From positions 36,679-100,678 of the forward strand of contig JAFWDK010000018.1 in NCBI GenBank assembly GCA_017513085.1: a stretch of 64,000 bases of DNA. The letters are read 5' to 3'. The position numbers and the translations under genes are program-made. The notes beneath the pieces were generated by a model. That model was not told where the DNA came from and ran no database searches. It was given only the letters and a program-made list of their open reading frames with translations. This document shows, in pieces, positions 36,647-49,233 of this stretch. Every line of letters starts with the position of its first letter. The first letter of the stretch is position 1. The stretch comes from Clostridiales bacterium. GTDB taxonomy: Bacteria > Bacillota > Clostridia > Saccharofermentanales > Saccharofermentanaceae.

Positions 36647-38077
36647 TCAGTCGTTCTCCACCGAGTTTACGGAAACATAGATATCTTCCGGCTTTTGCAT
36701 GTCTACACGGAAATAAACGCTATCCGAACACTTCACTTTAATGAGCATATTCCAGGAACCGGTAGAATTTACCTCAGCAAAATCAATATATGCTTCAAGA
36801 TTAGAAGTATTCAGTTTATCGATCACATTCTTTCGGCCAACGATACGCACCGTGACTTCCTGAACGATCGGGTAATTGTTGACAGTCAGATTTCTCTCCG
36901 TCAGCATCGCATCATTTTCATAACGCAACGGAAGCGTGTACGTCTTCTCGGTAACCGGATTGGTCGTAACCTGAATATACATCCAAAGGAAAATAGAAAA
37001 CAAAAACGAAATCAGAAGAAGCCATACACGGCCGGACTTCTTCGCACCTTTTCTCGCCCGGCGCGAAGCAACGACCGGAACAGATTCGGCTTCTGCTTTT
37101 TTTGTATCGCTGTTCTTTGTTTCACTATTCTTGGCAGTAACAAGGATCGGCGCATCCTGAGCTTCCAGCTCCTGCTTCTTCGTCTTCTTGGAATTCTTCT
37201 TGGAACGTACGGTAAGACGGCCCTTGGAATTGGAAAGACCGAGCAGATAAGAAAGATTCTTCTTCAGTTCCTGTCCGTCCTTCATCTCATAGAGAACGCC
37301 CTCCACCGCAATGGACATCGTTCCTCTTTCCTCGGAAACAACGATCGCTATTGTATCTCCGATCTCACTTGCACCAACTGCCGCTCTGTGACGAGTACCG
37401 TATCTTTCCAGAGAATGGAAGGTTTCTGCTAACGGGACATGGCAACGTGCTGCCACGATCCTGCCGTCACGGATCAGCAACGCACCATCATGCATCGGAG
37501 AACCCTTGTAGAAGATCGACTGCAACATGGAATTGGTAACGGAAGAATCCAGTAACACAACATTCTCCTGTTTCAGCAATTCACCCAGGCGGGTACTCCT
37601 CTCGATCAGCATGATCGCGCCGGTATAGGTCTTGCTCATCTCTGTGCAAGCCTTGACGATCTCATCGACCATACTCACGAAACGAAGCTGTTCGTCACCA
37701 TCTTCATTTACGATCACGCTCGATAACGAAGAAAATGACTTTAAGCCGACCGTCTCCAGCGCATGACGGAGTTCAGGCTGGAAAATTACGACAAACAGGA
37801 TCGCAACAATGTAAAGAAGTTTATTGAACAAGTATCCGACCATTTCCAGTCCCAGGAAACTGCAGACTAAAATGAAACCCATGATCAGCAGGACACCTTT
37901 CAGAAGCTGCCATGCACGGGTATCGCGGATAATGCGAAGAAGACTGTACATTAAGAATGTGACCAGAAGGATATCGATGATATATCTGACAAGATCCAAT
38001 GGTCCGCCGAAAAAGAGGTAGCCGCTATCCAAACTTGAAAAGATCTCACGTACAAAATCCGAAAGCTTTTCAAACAT
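36647..38077 (-). CDS. cdaA: Diadenylate cyclase CdaA/DacA fused to a C-terminal TM + YbbR (CdaR-like) domain
   Basis: N-terminal TMs, FQPELR, MHDGA, GTRHRAA, VVSEERG; then ISFLFSIFLWMYI...NP...VTVRIVG...AYIDF (YbbR-like). Confidence 0.88.
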   Translation of the reverse strand: MFEKLSDFVREIFSSLDSGYLFFGGPLDLVRYIIDILLVTFLMYSLLRIIRDTRAWQLLKGVLLIMGFILVCSFLGLEMVGYLFNKLLYIVAILFVVIFQPELRHALETVGLKSFSSLSSVIVNEDGDEQLRFVSMVDEIVKACTEMSKTYTGAIMLIERSTRLGELLKQENVVLLDSSVTNSMLQSIFYKGSPMHDGALLIRDGRIVAARCHVPLAETFHSLERYGTRHRAAVGASEIGDTIAIVVSEERGTMSIAVEGVLYEMKDGQELKKNLSYLLGLSNSKGRLTVRSKKNSKKTKKQELEAQDAPILVTAKNSETKNSDTKKAEAESVPVVASRRARKGAKKSGRVWLLLISFLFSIFLWMYIQVTTNPVTEKTYTLPLRYENDAMLTERNLTVNNYPIVQEVTVRIVGRKNVIDKLNTSNLEAYIDFAEVNSTGSWNMLIKVKCSDSVYFRVDMQKPEDIYVSVNSVEND

Positions 38078-42097: not shown

Positions 42098-42134
42098 TCA
42101 GGTTTTTCCTATCACTCATTGATAAAAAAATCGA

Positions 42135-42178
42135 TAAAAAAGCAGGGTGTGATTCTTCCATCACACCCTGCTTTTTTA
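42135..42178. terminator. Bidirectional intrinsic terminator after ilvE
   Basis: AAAAAAGCAGGGTGTGAT...ATCACACCCTGCTTTTTT. Confidence 0.9.
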
Positions 42179-42300
42179 TGTCGTATTTTCTCAACTACAC
42201 GAACAGATTTCTGCACGATATTTCGTCTTGATTTTTTATATGAAGTTATCATCTTCAATCATTCGCCAATGCTGATATCTCAGCATTTTTCCAAGACATA

Positions 42301-43130: not shown

Positions 43131-43565
43131 TCAGTAATAGAAAAAGCACTTCAGCACATCGCCGGATTCCCAACGGAAGTTCAGAGTCTGAAATTGTCCC
43201 GGAGCAAGCGGCGTATACTTGTTGGCATCGTTACAATGCGTCATCTGCACATATTCCGGATCCTCCGGAATCTTGTCGGAAAAGAAACCGAGAAGCTCTT
43301 TGTCATTCAAAGAGATCTGCGCGTTCACGCAATTCTGCGGGATCAGGACATCCACACGGAAACGGCATGGTTTGTCCATAAGAAACAAAAGACCTAGTAC
43401 TTCACGATCTTCCTTAGGCTTTGTGACGCGCTGGGCTATTGTAACATGCGAGCCATCCAGATCAAACTCATAATCCGCGTCGATGTTTTCACCGATCACG
43501 ATGCCGGAAAACAGATCGCCTTCTAGTAAATGTCCTTTTTTTGGCGCCTGGAATTCATTTTCCAT
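43131..43565 (-). CDS. Hypothetical protein resembling a GH127/GH146 non-catalytic beta-sandwich domain
   Basis: FRVDVLIP...AQISLND...LNFRWESGDVL pattern; ATG 43565 behind GGAG. Confidence 0.5.
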   Translation of the reverse strand: MENEFQAPKKGHLLEGDLFSGIVIGENIDADYEFDLDGSHVTIAQRVTKPKEDREVLGLLFLMDKPCRFRVDVLIPQNCVNAQISLNDKELLGFFSDKIPEDPEYVQMTHCNDANKYTPLAPGQFQTLNFRWESGDVLKCFFYY

Positions 43566-44808
43566 TATGCTTCTCCTTTTTATCCTGACTCGTTTGTGTC
43601 GTAGATTCTTCTGATGCTGACTGTGTCTTTTTCTTTGGCTGAGCTGTTGGTTCCAACGTCTCACCTGCTTCGTAACGGGATACGGTTACACAATTCTGTG
43701 ATCCCTTCTCTACCGCTTTCACCACGATAAAAGCAACAACATTGATACGCACCGTCAAACGGTTCTCGTCAAGCGCATCTATTAACGTCTTATAGGAATC
43801 CAGATTCGTGCTGCGGATCTTTCCTCCATAATCCTGCAAGGCCAGGTTCTTCGTTTCTTTCATATCTTCGAGTTTGGAAAAATTATAATCCGAAGACTCG
43901 AAAAACACGATCGGTATCGATGCGTTATCAAAAGGCACAAAGTCGGATCTGACTTTCGTTACCTCACGATACATATCCTGCTTTCCATCCCCATCGACAT
44001 CAAAACTCAGTAAAGACATATTGTAGCAAAGATCCACACCGGTCTGCGAATTGACTGCATTCTCATATGCCACATCATACGCTTCGTAAAGTTTCCGTCG
44101 GAAAGAGTACTTCTTCCCGTCTTTTAACGAAGAAAGACCGGCATGCGCATACAGTTTGTCACCGGCATATATACTCTCGATACAATACATGCACTCGATT
44201 TTTTTCTTTTCCTCTTCAGTCAGGTTATTCAGGAAATAAGACGCTCCGGCGTAAGATGCCGATCCGGCGCCAAAAGCTACGATGATCACATCATAACCGT
44301 AAGTATGTCCGTACATCTGCTTGGCAATCGTCAGCAAAGCTCCGATACCGCAAGCATTGTTCTGGATACCATCGTAAGCAGGATACTCGAATCGCTGGTC
44401 ATACTTGACCGGAGAATCATAGTGCGCGCCGATCACGACCGTCTTTCTCACCTTGGAATATTCACCGAAAGAATCTCTCTGCATGAAACCTTCGCCATTA
44501 AGACGAACGATATAATTGGTCGATGTATCTCCACCGGTACGAAAAGATTGCGTCTCAACTTTATAACCGATCTTTTCCAGTTCATTCTGTATTAATGTAC
44601 CGGCACCCGCTTCTCCGGCCGAACCCGAATAACGGTAAGGAAACTCATTGGCGATCTTTATTGCGAGATCCGAACCATATGTACCATAGTCGGCAACTTT
44701 CTGCTTTTCTTTATCTTTTTTGCATGCCGCACACCAGGGCAGCATGCAAAGGCATATTGCCAGTGATACGATTCTTACTAGGAAATGTGTTCTGTTTCTT
44801 TCTCTCAT
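43555..44808 (-). CDS. M28 peptidase-like lipoprotein (Iap/aminopeptidase fold), probably inactive
   Basis: Lipobox AAC; GAHYDS kept, but QNNACG, FGAGS, RSDF and RST..D replace DDNASG, F.AEE, SDH and H...D. Confidence 0.8.
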   Translation of the reverse strand: MRERNRTHFLVRIVSLAICLCMLPWCAACKKDKEKQKVADYGTYGSDLAIKIANEFPYRYSGSAGEAGAGTLIQNELEKIGYKVETQSFRTGGDTSTNYIVRLNGEGFMQRDSFGEYSKVRKTVVIGAHYDSPVKYDQRFEYPAYDGIQNNACGIGALLTIAKQMYGHTYGYDVIIVAFGAGSASYAGASYFLNNLTEEEKKKIECMYCIESIYAGDKLYAHAGLSSLKDGKKYSFRRKLYEAYDVAYENAVNSQTGVDLCYNMSLLSFDVDGDGKQDMYREVTKVRSDFVPFDNASIPIVFFESSDYNFSKLEDMKETKNLALQDYGGKIRSTNLDSYKTLIDALDENRLTVRINVVAFIVVKAVEKGSQNCVTVSRYEAGETLEPTAQPKKKTQSASEESTTQTSQDKKEKHNGK

Positions 44809-44819
44809 TTCTTCTCCTG

Positions 44820-45860
44820 TCAGCGCCCACCGTGGAAATCTTCACAGATGATATCGAGTTTTTCCGAAAAAAACAACATCGCCTCGGCTGCCGTCATGGT
44901 CGCTTGCTTCACCGTACCATTTCCGGACGCGAGGATCACGGGAACTTCATCTTTATATGGGGCAATGTTTTTGCTGATCCTTCTGAGTAGAGAATCCTTG
45001 GAAACTCCTTCGAGTTTTCTCGGAAATCCAAGAAGATCATAAAGCCGGAAAAGCGCCTCAGAAGGATTCATCGCTGCCATTGCGAAGGCAAGTGCTTCTC
45101 CTTCCGAATACCGAAGGAAACGGAAATGCTCCAATATTGCCTCTTTCAATTCACGGCCAAAGTCAAAAGCATTGGCATTGGCAGCGGTAATGCGTGATTT
45201 GGCAAGATAACATTCGTCGATCGTAATAAACATATCGGAATGATTCACCAGACGGTTCAAAAGTGTGATCTGATCAAGCATGCCATATTGGATGATCTGT
45301 GCATAGCCGTTTTTAAGAAAATGTTCCGGAAGTGTGCTTAAAAATTCCACATCCATAATTACGGCAATCGGCTTACACTTCACGCTGACACAGTCTTTAT
45401 GACTCATATAATTCAAATAGGCCGTATCTGCTTCTGCCGACTCAAGCATGCCCAGAAGGGATGTCGGAACCAGACAATAAGGCAGACCGCCCAGAAATGT
45501 CGAAGCGACAAAAGCCGTGACATCAAGGATACTGCCGCCGCCCCATCCGACAAGAAGATCCTGTCCGGAGAAGGAAATATCCATCAGTCTTTCGAATACA
45601 TCCATAACAACATCGAAGTTTTTCGAAGACTGTCTTCCGTCGATCATGATCACCGTCGGAACGATGCCTTTATTCTCAAGTTCGGAAATGAAGCGAAGGT
45701 GGTGCAGACCATTGACTTCTTTATCCGTAACGATCGCAACTTTTACCGGTGCTAAGGAGGATCGCTCCTTTACGATTTCATAAAGACGCTCGTGTGCAAT
45801 TTCCCTTCCGCAAATGATCGGATAGTCGCACTTGGACTCAACACGTTTCAGACTTGGCAT
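44820..45860 (-). CDS. 3-dehydroquinate synthase (AroB)-like protein, catalytic residues lost
   Basis: YPI, IVTD, GGG..LD..AF.AST, VPTSLL, P.AV..D..FL.TLP, GEA scaffold; Zn ligands and catalytic Lys/Arg/His absent. Confidence 0.82.
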   Translation of the reverse strand: MPSLKRVESKCDYPIICGREIAHERLYEIVKERSSLAPVKVAIVTDKEVNGLHHLRFISELENKGIVPTVIMIDGRQSSKNFDVVMDVFERLMDISFSGQDLLVGWGGGSILDVTAFVASTFLGGLPYCLVPTSLLGMLESAEADTAYLNYMSHKDCVSVKCKPIAVIMDVEFLSTLPEHFLKNGYAQIIQYGMLDQITLLNRLVNHSDMFITIDECYLAKSRITAANANAFDFGRELKEAILEHFRFLRYSEGEALAFAMAAMNPSEALFRLYDLLGFPRKLEGVSKDSLLRRISKNIAPYKDEVPVILASGNGTVKQATMTAAEAMLFFSEKLDIICEDFHGGR

Positions 45861-46007
45861 CCGACGGATCCTCCCTTCCCTTTTTTGTCTGCTGATATGA
45901 TAACACTTTTACCCAAAACTTTGCAAAAATCCGAAAGGAAAGTGCTTTTTGAGAAATATATATGGTAGAATATGTATTTGCATATATAGGAAAGAAGGTT
46001 ATATACA

Positions 46008-47486
46008 ATGACTGTTGTAACAAATCCAGCAATTCGCACGCGTTTTGCGCCCAGCCCGACGGGTTTCATGCACGTGGGCAATCTTCGTACGGCTCTCTAT
46101 GAGTATCTGATCGCCAAATCTTTAGGCGGTACTTTTGTTTTGCGTATCGAGGATACAGACCAGGAACGTTATGTGGATGGCGCAGTGGACATTATCTACA
46201 AAACACTGAAGACCGCAGGACTGATCCATGATGAAGGTCCGGATATCGGCGGCGATTTCGGTCCTTATGTCCAAAGCCAGCGCATGGATCTGTATAAGCC
46301 ATATGCCGAAGAGCTTGTCAAAAAAGGACACGCTTACTATTGTTTCTGTTCTAAGGAGCGACTGGCTTCTCTTCATGAGGAAGGTGGCGCTGAAGCCGGT
46401 TATGACCGTCACTGCCGTGATCTGTCCCCTGAGGAAGTCAAGAAGAATCTGGATGCCGGAGTTCCTTACGTCATCCGTCAGAAGATGCCGCTTACCGGCG
46501 AGACCACATTTCATGACTGCGTCTACGGAGATATCACGGTTCAGAACAAGGAACTCGAGGATCAGATCCTTCTGAAGGCTGACGGTTATCCGACATATAA
46601 CTTTGCAAATATCATCGATGACCATCTCATGAAGATCTCTCATGTAGTCCGTGGCTCCGAGTACCTCTCCTCTACACCGAAATACAACCTCTGCTATGAG
46701 GCTTTCGGTTGGGAGATCCCGACATATGTTCATCTTCCGCTGATCATGGGTAAGAATGAGGATGGTTCTGTCAGCAAACTTTCCAAGCGTCATGGTTCCA
46801 CAGGATTCGAAGATCTTGTAGCACAGGGATTCCTTCCGGAAGCGATCATTAACTACATCGCGCTCCTCGGCTGGTGTCCGAAGGATAATCAGGAAGTATT
46901 CTCGCTTTCTGAGCTCTGTCAGGCATTCGACATCTCCGGCATCAGTAAATCACCGGCTGTCTTCGATTACGATAAACTCGAGTGGTTCAATGGTGAGTAT
47001 ATTAGAAAAATGAGTCAGGAGGAATTCATCGAGTTTGCCAAGCCTGAACTTGCCAAGTTCCCGATGATCACCCCTGATCTTTATCCTCTCTTTACAGAGA
47101 TCATGCAGCCTCGTATCACTAAGCTTCCGCAGATCAGCGAGAAGCTCGGATTCCTTCTGGAGCTGGCCGATTACGATCTGGAACTGTATGTTCACAAGAA
47201 GAGCAAGACTACCAAGGAAGGGTCTCTTGAGATGCTCAATACCGTAATTCCGCTTCTGGAAACGGTGGATTGGAACAAGGACGCTCTGTCTGAATGTATG
47301 ACCGGTCTGGCAGAAGGTCTTGGCGTGAAGAACGCACTGGTCATGTGGCCGGTTCGTATCGCCGCTTCCGGCACAGCTGTAACACCCGGTGGTGCAGTGG
47401 AAGTTCTTCTTCTGCTCGGCAAGGAAGAAGCCCTGAAGCGTATTGAATCCGGACGACAGCGTCTCTCCGCTGCATTGTCCCAATGA
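46008..47486 (+). CDS. gltX: Glutamate--tRNA ligase
   Basis: [32 protein letters not shown]. Confidence 0.97.
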
Positions 47487-47565
47487 TTGGAAAAGTTAAG
47501 AACAAGTGCTTTTCCTTAAGAATTGAAAACACGCATCCGTGTAATATAGAAAGCGAGAGAAAAAT

Positions 47566-49233
47566 ATGAGCGAATATAAAAGTTTTATCCATGAAGCAAT
47601 CGAAGAAGATATCGGACCGGGCGGACGTTACGAAGGTAAGACCGTCCATACCCGTTTTCCACCGGAGCCGAACGGCTATCTCCATATCGGTCATGCCAAA
47701 GCATTGGAGATCGATTTCGGAATGGCGGAACAGTACGGTGGTCTTTGCAATCTTCGTATGGATGATACCAACCCGACCAAAGAAGATGAAGAATATGTCG
47801 AGGCGATCAAGGAAGATATCAAGTGGCTTGGCCATGACTGGGACGACCGCTTCTATTATGCCTCTTCCTACTTCGATAAGATGTACGAGTATGCAGTTGA
47901 GCTGATCAAGAAAGGTCTTGCTTATGTTTGTCAGCTGACTCCGGAAGAAATGAAGGAACATCGTGGAGACCTGACTCATCCGGCAACAAGCCCTTATCGT
48001 GATCGTCCGATCGAAGAGAGTCTGGATCTTTTTGAGCGAATGAAAAACGGTGAATTCGAGGATGGCGCGATGACACTTCGTGCTAAGATCGATCTGGCAT
48101 CCGGTAACTTTAATATGCGTGATCCTGCCATTTACAGAATCAATCATATGCGTCATCATAACACCGGAGACAAGTGGTGCATCTATCCGATGTACGACTT
48201 TGCCCACCCGATCGAAGATGCACTGGAGGGCATTACACACTCTCTCTGCTCTCTTGAGTTCGAGGCGCATCGTCCATTGTACGATTGGGTGATCGAGAAC
48301 GTATCCGTTCCGTCTAAGCCGCGTCAGATCGAGTTTGCAAGACTCGGTATCACACATACGGTCCTCAGTAAGAGAAAACTCCGTAACATGGTCGAGACCG
48401 GACTTGTAGATGGCTGGGACGATCCGCGTATGCCTACCCTTTGCGGTCTTAGACGTCGTGGATATACACCTGCTTCGATCCATAACTTCCACTCCAGAAA
48501 CGGTATTTCCAAAGTGAATGCGGTAGTTGACTACGCTTTCCTTGAATACTGTTTGCGTGAAGATCTGAATGCTACTGCTAAGCGTGTCATGGGTGTTGTA
48601 CATCCGGTAAAGCTTATCATTGATAATTATCCGGAAGGCAAAACCGAGAGTTTTACAGTAGAGAATAATCCGGAAAGGCCGGAAGACGGTACCCGTGAAG
48701 TAACATTCTCACGTGAACTCTGGATCGAAGAAGATGATTTCATGGAAGTTCCGGAAAAGAAATATTTCCGTCTCTTCCCTGGAAACGAAGTTCGCTTGAA
48801 GTCCGCCTATGTCATTAAGTGCACAGGCTGTGACAAAGACGAAAACGGCAAGGTCACTGCCGTGCATGCTGAATATGAAGAATCCAGTCGTGGCGGTAAT
48901 CCGGCAGATGGACGCCGTATCAAGGCAACGATCCATTGGGTCGATACAAAAACTGCACTGGATGCTACCGTACGTCTTTACGACCGTCTCTTTACAGTAG
49001 AAGCTCCGGATCTTGCAGATTGCAATTATCTCGACTACATCAACCCGGATTCTCTTACGGTCGTCGAGGGTGCCAAAGTTGAAGCCTCCCTGGCCGATGC
49101 TAAGCCGGCAGACCGCTTCCAGTTCTTGAGACTCGGTTATTTCTGCATGGATACGAAAGACAGTAAGCCGGGTAACCTTGTCTTCAATCGAAGCGTTTCA
49201 CTTAAGGACAGTTACAAGCCGGAGAATAAGTGA
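47566..49233 (+). CDS. glnS: Glutamine--tRNA ligase
   Basis: TRFPPEPNGYLHIGH, YPMYDFAH, LSKRKL, WDDPRMPT, FQFLRLGYF. Confidence 0.96.
   Translation: MSEYKSFIHEAIEEDIGPGGRYEGKTVHTRFPPEPNGYLHIGHAKALEIDFGMAEQYGGLCNLRMDDTNPTKEDEEYVEAIKEDIKWLGHDWDDRFYYASSYFDKMYEYAVELIKKGLAYVCQLTPEEMKEHRGDLTHPATSPYRDRPIEESLDLFERMKNGEFEDGAMTLRAKIDLASGNFNMRDPAIYRINHMRHHNTGDKWCIYPMYDFAHPIEDALEGITHSLCSLEFEAHRPLYDWVIENVSVPSKPRQIEFARLGITHTVLSKRKLRNMVETGLVDGWDDPRMPTLCGLRRRGYTPASIHNFHSRNGISKVNAVVDYAFLEYCLREDLNATAKRVMGVVHPVKLIIDNYPEGKTESFTVENNPERPEDGTREVTFSRELWIEEDDFMEVPEKKYFRLFPGNEVRLKSAYVIKCTGCDKDENGKVTAVHAEYEESSRGGNPADGRRIKATIHWVDTKTALDATVRLYDRLFTVEAPDLADCNYLDYINPDSLTVVEGAKVEASLADAKPADRFQFLRLGYFCMDTKDSKPGNLVFNRSVSLKDSYKPENK

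Follow-up and report, generated by a model that had tools for sequence, protein, structure and literature searches.

A conserved dehydroquinate synthase-fold protein of Saccharofermentanaceae predicted to lack the zinc site and substrate pocket

Dehydroquinate synthase (DHQS, or AroB) is well known from textbooks, and its active site hardly varies; the sugar-phosphate cyclases EEVS, DDGS, and DOIS sit in natural-product clusters. Here, we compare with such systems a protein, P0001, that is encoded at 44820..45860 on the minus strand of a 64,000-nucleotide window (the whole stretch of DNA analysed) from a Clostridiales bacterium of the Saccharofermentanaceae (GCA_017513085.1, contig JAFWDK010000018.1, positions 36,679-100,678, forward strand). 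With the DHQSs (TIGR01357 and PF01761; PDB IDs 5EKS, 6LLA, 3OKF, and 1SG6), P0001 has in common the two-domain fold, the GGG..D and PT[TS] motifs, and the equivalents of D44, K84, and K161, and its modelled N-terminal dimer is also alike. In contrast to them, however, it has no Zn ligands, 10 of the 11 pocket residues are changed, the R264 loop and a C-terminal segment are deleted, a new HFRF loop is present, the gene lies outside an aro operon, and the aroB score is 108 against a cut-off of 305. ValA/EEVS (4P53), DDGS (5TPR), and the DOIS BtrC (2D2X) are function-changed DHQS paralogues with the same fold (Z of 29-31); these are dependent on NAD and on a metal (Zn or Co in the structure titles), whereas P0001 is without metal ligands and without a cluster. 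Maleylacetate reductase (cd08177, DHQ-FeADH superfamily) has lost the metal site and kept the use of NAD(H), though it belongs to the FeADH branch and has essential His and Lys residues, while P0001 is DHQS-derived and has none fixed in the pocket.

Fold and active-site positions of P0001

The P0001 reading frame is intact (346 aa, with 0 internal stops) and matches PF01761 with 71.4 bits (cut-off of 24.2), staying below the equivalog cut-off for aroB in TIGR01357 (107.9 bits vs 305). With TIGR04425, which covers EEVS, DDGS, and DOIS, the score was 81 bits against the 400 needed, and the Fe-ADH-side profiles failed as well (PF00465, 22 bits vs 31.3; G1PDH, 36 vs 413; GldA, 25 vs 336). The best-ranking solved relatives were all DHQSs, and an AlphaFold2 model built from a 46-row family alignment (pLDDT of 92.5 and pTM of 0.89) superposed on DHQS 5EKS with a Z of 35.9 and a rmsd of 2.6 for 329 aligned residues, which is the whole length. 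Fe-ADH-type proteins gave a Z of 24.8 at most, against this 35.9 for DHQS. Moreover, Foldseek matched the model to the DHQS fold with an E of 1e-23, and the search of the ESM Atlas returned DHQS clusters only. These computations show that P0001, as modelled, retains the DHQS fold.

For the DHQS sites, including the Zn ligands Glu194, His271, and His287, we adopt as labels what we take to be the A. nidulans residue numbers. A sequence-only reading of this DNA had named four strings in P0001 as remnants of active-site motifs, and all four are indeed present and aligned in register with the motifs of the AroB from the same genome (DSSIGGKT, EVIK, LNFGHTWGHA, and HGEA). Here, and on the minus strand throughout, ESAEADTA (residues 140-147; 45420..45443) takes the place of DSSxGGKT, with K152 and both glycines lost, while QIIQ (residues 188-191; 45288..45299) takes that of ExIK, with Zn ligand E194 and K197 lost. 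Likewise, FDFGRELKEA (residues 232-241; 45138..45167) stands for LNFGHTxGHA, with N268, H271, and H275 lost and the R264 loop before it deleted, and EGEA (residues 253-256; 45093..45104) stands for HGEA, with Zn ligand H287 lost in P0001, though the equivalent His is present in 18 of the 52 family members in a non-redundant alignment. The alignment with M. tuberculosis DHQS gave the same register for ESAEADTA and QIIQ. In terms of single residues, E140 replaces D146, T146 replaces K152, D156 replaces N162, Q188 replaces E194, Q191 replaces K197, and D233 replaces N268, with further replacements at H271 (R236), H275 (E240), H287 (E253), K356 (I299), and R130 (G124), and so the Zn triad positions read Q188, R236, and E253. 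In the 140 aligned rows that do not carry the family motif, the old catalytic positions hardly vary (each conserved in 135-138 rows), and so the losses in P0001 are not due to chance.

PMC6262012 names 11 DAHP-pocket residues of DHQS; of these, one is identical in P0001 (K221, equivalent to K250 and the sole unchanged residue), one is conservatively replaced (E140), eight are otherwise replaced, and one is deleted. The same paper describes five single Ala substitutions that each nearly abolish the activity of M. tuberculosis DHQS, and all five of the residues concerned are replaced in P0001 (T146, D156, D233, R236, and I299). In addition, PMC9074039 reports that activity is lost when Lys replaces both of the last two histidines. 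At the level of sequence, computation shows P0001 to be without the Zn site and the DAHP/phosphate pocket. The earlier claim that the whole active site was removed holds for 10 of the 11 pocket residues and for H287, with K221 (K250) as the survivor, but the claim that GGG..D and PT.LL alone had survived was too sweeping, since D46 (D44), K80 (K84), K155 (K161), K221, D170, T176, and G254-E255-A256 are still present. The description of P0001 as a pseudo-DHQS is itself upheld, both by the five replaced Ala-sensitive residues and by a canonical aroB elsewhere in the genome (362 bits vs 108 for P0001).

Site rates were obtained for 52 representatives with less than 70% identity, drawn from a pool of 168. 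On the cofactor side, the loop G107-G108-G109...D113 (45522..45542, minus strand, as for the sites that follow) is invariant in 52/52, as is T133 of the PT[TS] motif P132-T133-S134 (45459..45467). At D46-K47-E48-V49 (45714..45725), D46, which we take to be the adenosine-side Asp, is kept, and residue 47 is a family-specific basic one (R in 51 of 52, K in P0001). In all, D46, K80, G107-109, D113, T133, T/S134, and K/R155 are found in every one of the 52 members. The 14 positions taken to make up the NAD site, with both the contact list and the roles assumed, have a median site rate of 0.15; the same median applies to the new loop (residues 243-255). For the 12 former DAHP/Zn positions the median is 0.79 against 0.83 for the whole protein, that is, background. 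The loop carries the family-specific signature HFRFLRY in P0001 (residues 245-251; 45108..45128), with R247 in 52, F246 in 51, and F248 and Y251 each in 50 of the 52 members, and its family-wide form, [HY]FRF[LM][KN]Y, is near-invariant among them. Other newly fixed family residues are R47 (51/52), D/E94, M138, and N184.

Among the 52 members, no new residue is fixed at the E194 position (Q/S/A/R/P/T), and the positions of H271 (R/Q/S/N/H/D) and H275 (D/E/N/A/S/H) vary too. The chemical class is nevertheless kept at D146 (D/E in 47/52), K250 (K/R in 41/52), K197 (R/K/Q in 47/52), and N162 (D/N in 51/52), and these class-keeping pocket positions could be the mark of a remodelled ligand or catalytic site. 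P0001 may have retained NAD(H) binding; conservation agrees with the earlier suggestion to this effect, with the presumed cofactor positions falling in the slowest rate class. Nonetheless, the E81-equivalent is not conserved (Q77 in P0001, E in 18/52), and so the ligand may not be NAD. The GGG, PT, and D113 elements may also have been kept for reasons of fold.

Distribution, selection, and origin of the subfamily

Homologue searches returned 33 close proteins; remoter ones came from a profile run against 1.84 billion representatives. The motif [HY]F[RK]F[LM] occurs in 86 of 226 aligned rows, these being partly redundant (protein and locus ids). Every one of the 86 has a gap at R264; H271 survives in 4, H287 in 18, and E194 in 12, and the full set of three Zn ligands survives in just one (P0073). 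At the level of the order (300 genomes, matches with E ≤1e-90), carriers make up 132 of the 141 genomes in family f1 (G000 left out) and 24 of the 54 in f3, with no match among the 39 genomes of f2 and the 65 of f4. Seven of the nine f1 genomes without the pseudo-DHQS are also without the adjoining M28 gene, which indicates assembly gaps, and an eighth has a gene fragment. For 30 of the 54 f3 genomes, among them the single-contig G682 and G683, no such gene was detected, and it is therefore dispensable in near kin. A class-wide search (398 of 400 genomes scored) gave 13 matches better than 1e-100, all from f1 or f3, and the other 21 of its 34 matches, known by score alone, lie in the canonical AroB range (1e-70 to 1e-75). 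By motif scan with one genome per species, 105 of 109 hits were confirmed; the titles of the 80 hits listed name Saccharofermentans, Mageeibacillus, and unclassified Clostridia, and one close homologue is labelled Saccharofermentanaceae. The carriers are anaerobic gut, rumen, and digester bacteria.

For the pseudo-DHQS, 22 genomes of the genus gave a median dN/dS of 0.083 (35 of 231 pairs with dS <1.5), against 0.060 for aroB in the same genomes (179 of 231 pairs unsaturated); saturation of dS limits the precision and leaves the conclusion of purifying selection unaffected. Protein identity within the genus is 73-92% for the pseudo-DHQS versus 86-97% for aroB, and reading frames are open in members down to 30% identity. 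Computation on these sequences shows the pseudo-DHQS as a real, conserved subfamily under purifying selection, and given the loss of catalytic residues across its orthologues it is classed here, as a working term, as a pseudoenzyme. Our literature search, with subscription journals and supplements outside its range, found no description of a pseudo-DHQS subfamily. An active-site-free DHQS subfamily in more than 150 genomes would be a clean case of an enzyme turned pseudoenzyme, with apparent intermediates on record from the intact P0074 through the Zn-keeping P0073 to the fully stripped P0001. Moreover, the database labels of its members, 'iron-containing alcohol dehydrogenase' or 'dehydroquinate synthetase', would mislead metabolic models of common rumen and digester bacteria, an effect confined to a part of this order.

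The genome that encodes P0001 has two PF01761 matches, the second of which, on contig C24, is a canonical aroB (TIGR01357, 362.4 bits vs the cut-off of 305) within a run of tyrA, aroE-aroK, aroB, aroA, and aroC. This genome search, proposed in the sequence-only reading, found both aroB and the shikimate genes. The remark that no other aro genes are near P0001 holds for the 10 flanking proteins scanned, the full operon being on C24. Nearly every carrier that was checked yielded a canonical aroB; the three misses, G001, G016, and G540, are fragmented or incomplete genomes in which aroC is missing or truncated by a contig end. In a 95-row quick tree, 34 family rows make up one side of a branch (SH-aLRT of 100) next to P0074, which computationally shows a single origin for the subfamily, as judged from its sequences. 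P0074 is an intact DHQS (317 bits) that has HYRYKKWLHGEA, and the C-terminal deletion is common to it and the family. The deep-branching P0073 (G661, L193:5935-6975, plus strand) keeps the E, H, and H Zn ligands along with H275, and is without K152, R264, N268, and K356, a pattern whereby the substrate Lys and Arg residues would be lost first and the Zn ligands afterwards. Such an order, from substrate residues to metal ligands, is suggested by a midpoint-rooted quick tree with long branches; P0073 is possibly an intermediate, or else a metal-dependent enzyme with another specificity.

As for its history, a xenologous second aroB resembling P0074 would have arrived beside an order-wide M28 gene, presumably in the ancestor of f1 and part of f3. 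The family is not nested among the resident AroBs of the order (63-row quick tree with long branches and a midpoint root). The possibility that the resident aroB had once stood before M28 is not supported: M28 has no DHQS-like ORF ahead of it in the non-carrier loci inspected, and in this tree the pseudo-DHQS clade falls outside that of resident aroB. In genus g2, the resident aroB (L203-L205 and L196) groups with unrelated lineages at two separate places in the tree, while the pseudo-gene, unlike it, follows the family. Separately, this aroB placement suggests that the aro genes of genus g2 were replaced by transfer.

Genomic neighbourhood and the M28 lipoprotein

Eleven nucleotides after the P0001 stop begins the gene for an M28-fold lipoprotein (43555..44808, minus strand). 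In all 20 loci of a first set, the pseudo-DHQS gene immediately precedes this M28 gene in the same orientation, and it does so again in 79 of 80 loci of a second, overlapping set, the 80th of which stops at a contig end. The gaps between the two genes range from -73 to +71 nt, and the stop and start codons often overlap. In G661, the two are convergent, with an alaX-like gene between them. The M28 fold was assigned by structure comparison, and the lipobox Cys (Cys29) is invariant and HYD is kept, though the two-zinc site HxD...D...EE...D...H is incomplete. By comparison with AaaA (9OQA), FGAG[S/N/T] is found in place of FGAEE (FGAGS in the window), and the last His is an Arg (R332); we assume that the former site corresponds to the general-base Glu and the latter to the final His of the Zn site. 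By pattern match, G or S replaces the first Glu in 71 of 79 proteins (AG in 64, AS in 7) and in 17 of 19, the pattern for the second Asp being excluded for partial mis-hits. From its sequence, then, the downstream M28 protein also looks non-catalytic.

All 184 high-quality genomes of the order have the M28 gene, and its general-base Glu is absent with or without a pseudo-DHQS in the genome. In non-carriers, M28 is at the same chromosomal place with no DHQS-like neighbour in each of the 15 loci inspected, out of 16 such loci. The M28 lipoprotein might be a pseudopeptidase throughout the order, and its gene a marker for it. It is single-copy and closest to the AaaA/Iap-type aminopeptidases, with orthologues in L034-L053 and L096-L194.

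On the other side of P0001, the divergent gltX-glnS pair (46008..49233, plus strand; adjacent and co-directional) represents its usual upstream neighbours and provides context only; glnS is less common in Bacillota genomes. Over 80 loci, the neighbours include gltX-glnS in 66, cdaA in 32, and an Rrf2 pair in 13, and no pathway genes are conserved around the pseudo-DHQS across these 80. The neighbourhood is no functional pointer for the pseudo-DHQS. The Rrf2 pair was rejected as an obligatory partner, being directly upstream in 13 of 80 loci and absent beside most carriers. These tandem Rrf2-family regulators (L038:7454-8357, L194:5201-6110, and L046:5446-6372) follow a metY-like gene and an AraC regulator.

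A GGGAGG stretch, like a Shine-Dalgarno sequence, lies about 8 nt before the P0001 ATG, and a promoter-like site, TTGCAA-18-TG-TATCAT (45897..45926, minus strand), 37 nt before the start is a consensus match only, in a scan that was weak (9 sites found vs 8.1 expected by chance). Assembled contigs from two RNA runs cover the P0001/M28 junction (X2, 44154-44947) and a part of P0001 (X3, 45548-45712); neither is evidence of transcription, nor the former of co-transcription.

Dimer model and possible roles

A homodimer model (two P0001 copies with NAD) scored 0.62 over its two protein chains against 0.00 for the best control; of 30 solved pairs 20 attained this mark, as did 1 of 23 single chains. 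Between runs, at least 95% of the contacts are the same, with a pLDDT of at least 91, and the modelled interface (residues 82-93, 100, 120-125, 146-161, and 301) is N-terminal, which we take to be the usual DHQS dimer type. The interface residues are not slow-evolving (median rate of 0.94), and the FRF loop (245-251) is not among the confident dimer contacts. P0001 is probably dimeric, as modelled, though the dimer pass may come from a likeness to, or memory of, solved DHQS dimers.

On balance, we favour an account of P0001 as a non-catalytic, nucleotide-binding, and probably dimeric DHQS-derived pseudoenzyme that acts as a sensor or scaffold. In such a protein, the N-terminal domain would still bind NAD(H) or a related adenine nucleotide, and the N-terminal domains would form the usual DHQS-type homodimer. 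The [HY]FRF[LM][KN]Y loop of the C-terminal domain, together with R47, D74, D94, M138, and N184, might then form the face that docks to a partner or to the membrane. Through the DHQS hinge, nucleotide occupancy would alter how the loop is presented, and so P0001 might be a redox- or nucleotide-state sensor or scaffold. The chief alternative, though rather unlikely, is a metal-free NAD(P)H-dependent enzyme, like maleylacetate reductase, with a new substrate held by R247 and the acidic and basic pocket residues; the sequence-only reading did not raise this prospect. The conserved cofactor site, the class-keeping at D146, N162, K197, and K250, and R247 in 52/52 members all agree with this, as do the maleylacetate reductases of the DHQ-FeADH superfamily, which work without metal according to PMC5125639. 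Against an enzyme, however, the old pocket has no fixed His, Lys, or acidic residue and its median rate is that of background, while maleylacetate reductase needs fixed His and Lys residues according to PMC5741723; nor do the 80 loci have conserved pathway genes.

Same-strand adjacency in 20/20 and 79/80 loci (overlapping sets) while flanking genes vary, along with an M28 protein that is without its general-base Glu, would fit a pair of repurposed dead enzymes forming a lineage-specific module for envelope sensing, yet we think this improbable. Here, the extracellular M28-fold lipoprotein would bind peptides or wall fragments, and the hinge of a cytoplasmic DHQS-fold nucleotide sensor would show the FRF loop to a membrane partner, for which the diadenylate cyclase CdaA is a candidate. 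If true, the DHQS fold would here have been turned to signalling, a use that we did not find described in the literature searched. However, M28 is in all 184 high-quality genomes of the order and stays in place without the DHQS-like gene, the G661 pair is convergent with an alaX-like gene between, and a lipoprotein signal is found on the M28 protein and none on P0001, making direct contact unlikely. We give even less credit to P0001 as a regulator of the resident AroB, i.e., as the dominant-negative or allosteric subunit of a heterodimer; although a DHQS-type interface can be modelled and nearly all carriers checked have a canonical aroB, the interface residues are not conserved, none of the loci inspected has the pseudo-DHQS inside an aro operon, and in genus g2 it follows the family while the resident aroB groups with unrelated lineages. 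Hardly credible at all is a decaying, functionless duplicate or a still-active divergent DHQS. The faster evolution relative to aroB and the apparent losses in f3 are what speak for these, but open frames down to 30% identity, a dN/dS of about 0.08, new invariant residues, and the replacement of all five individually essential DHQS residues have largely refuted both decay and retained DHQS activity. The regulatory Fe-ADH ErcA was also considered and set aside.

Elsewhere in the window, CdaA (36647-38077, minus strand) is over the TIGR00159 cut-off and has 476 aa, with a long C-terminal extension past the second hydrophobic segment; it is possibly a CdaA-CdaR fusion. In 32 of 80 loci, cdaA is at most 7 kb from the pseudo-DHQS. 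Beside M28 is the gene for a small conserved protein of about 150 aa (43131-43664, minus strand; e.g., L048:4302-4757), which weakly resembles the GH127 middle domain (E of 0.003), and this gene is co-directional with M28 in genus g1 and convergent in several other genera. Lastly, between the convergent ilvE and RDD genes lies a 20-bp inverted repeat without mismatches, flanked at either end by A/T tails (42134-42179); it is likely a bidirectional terminator that would end the minus-strand operon.
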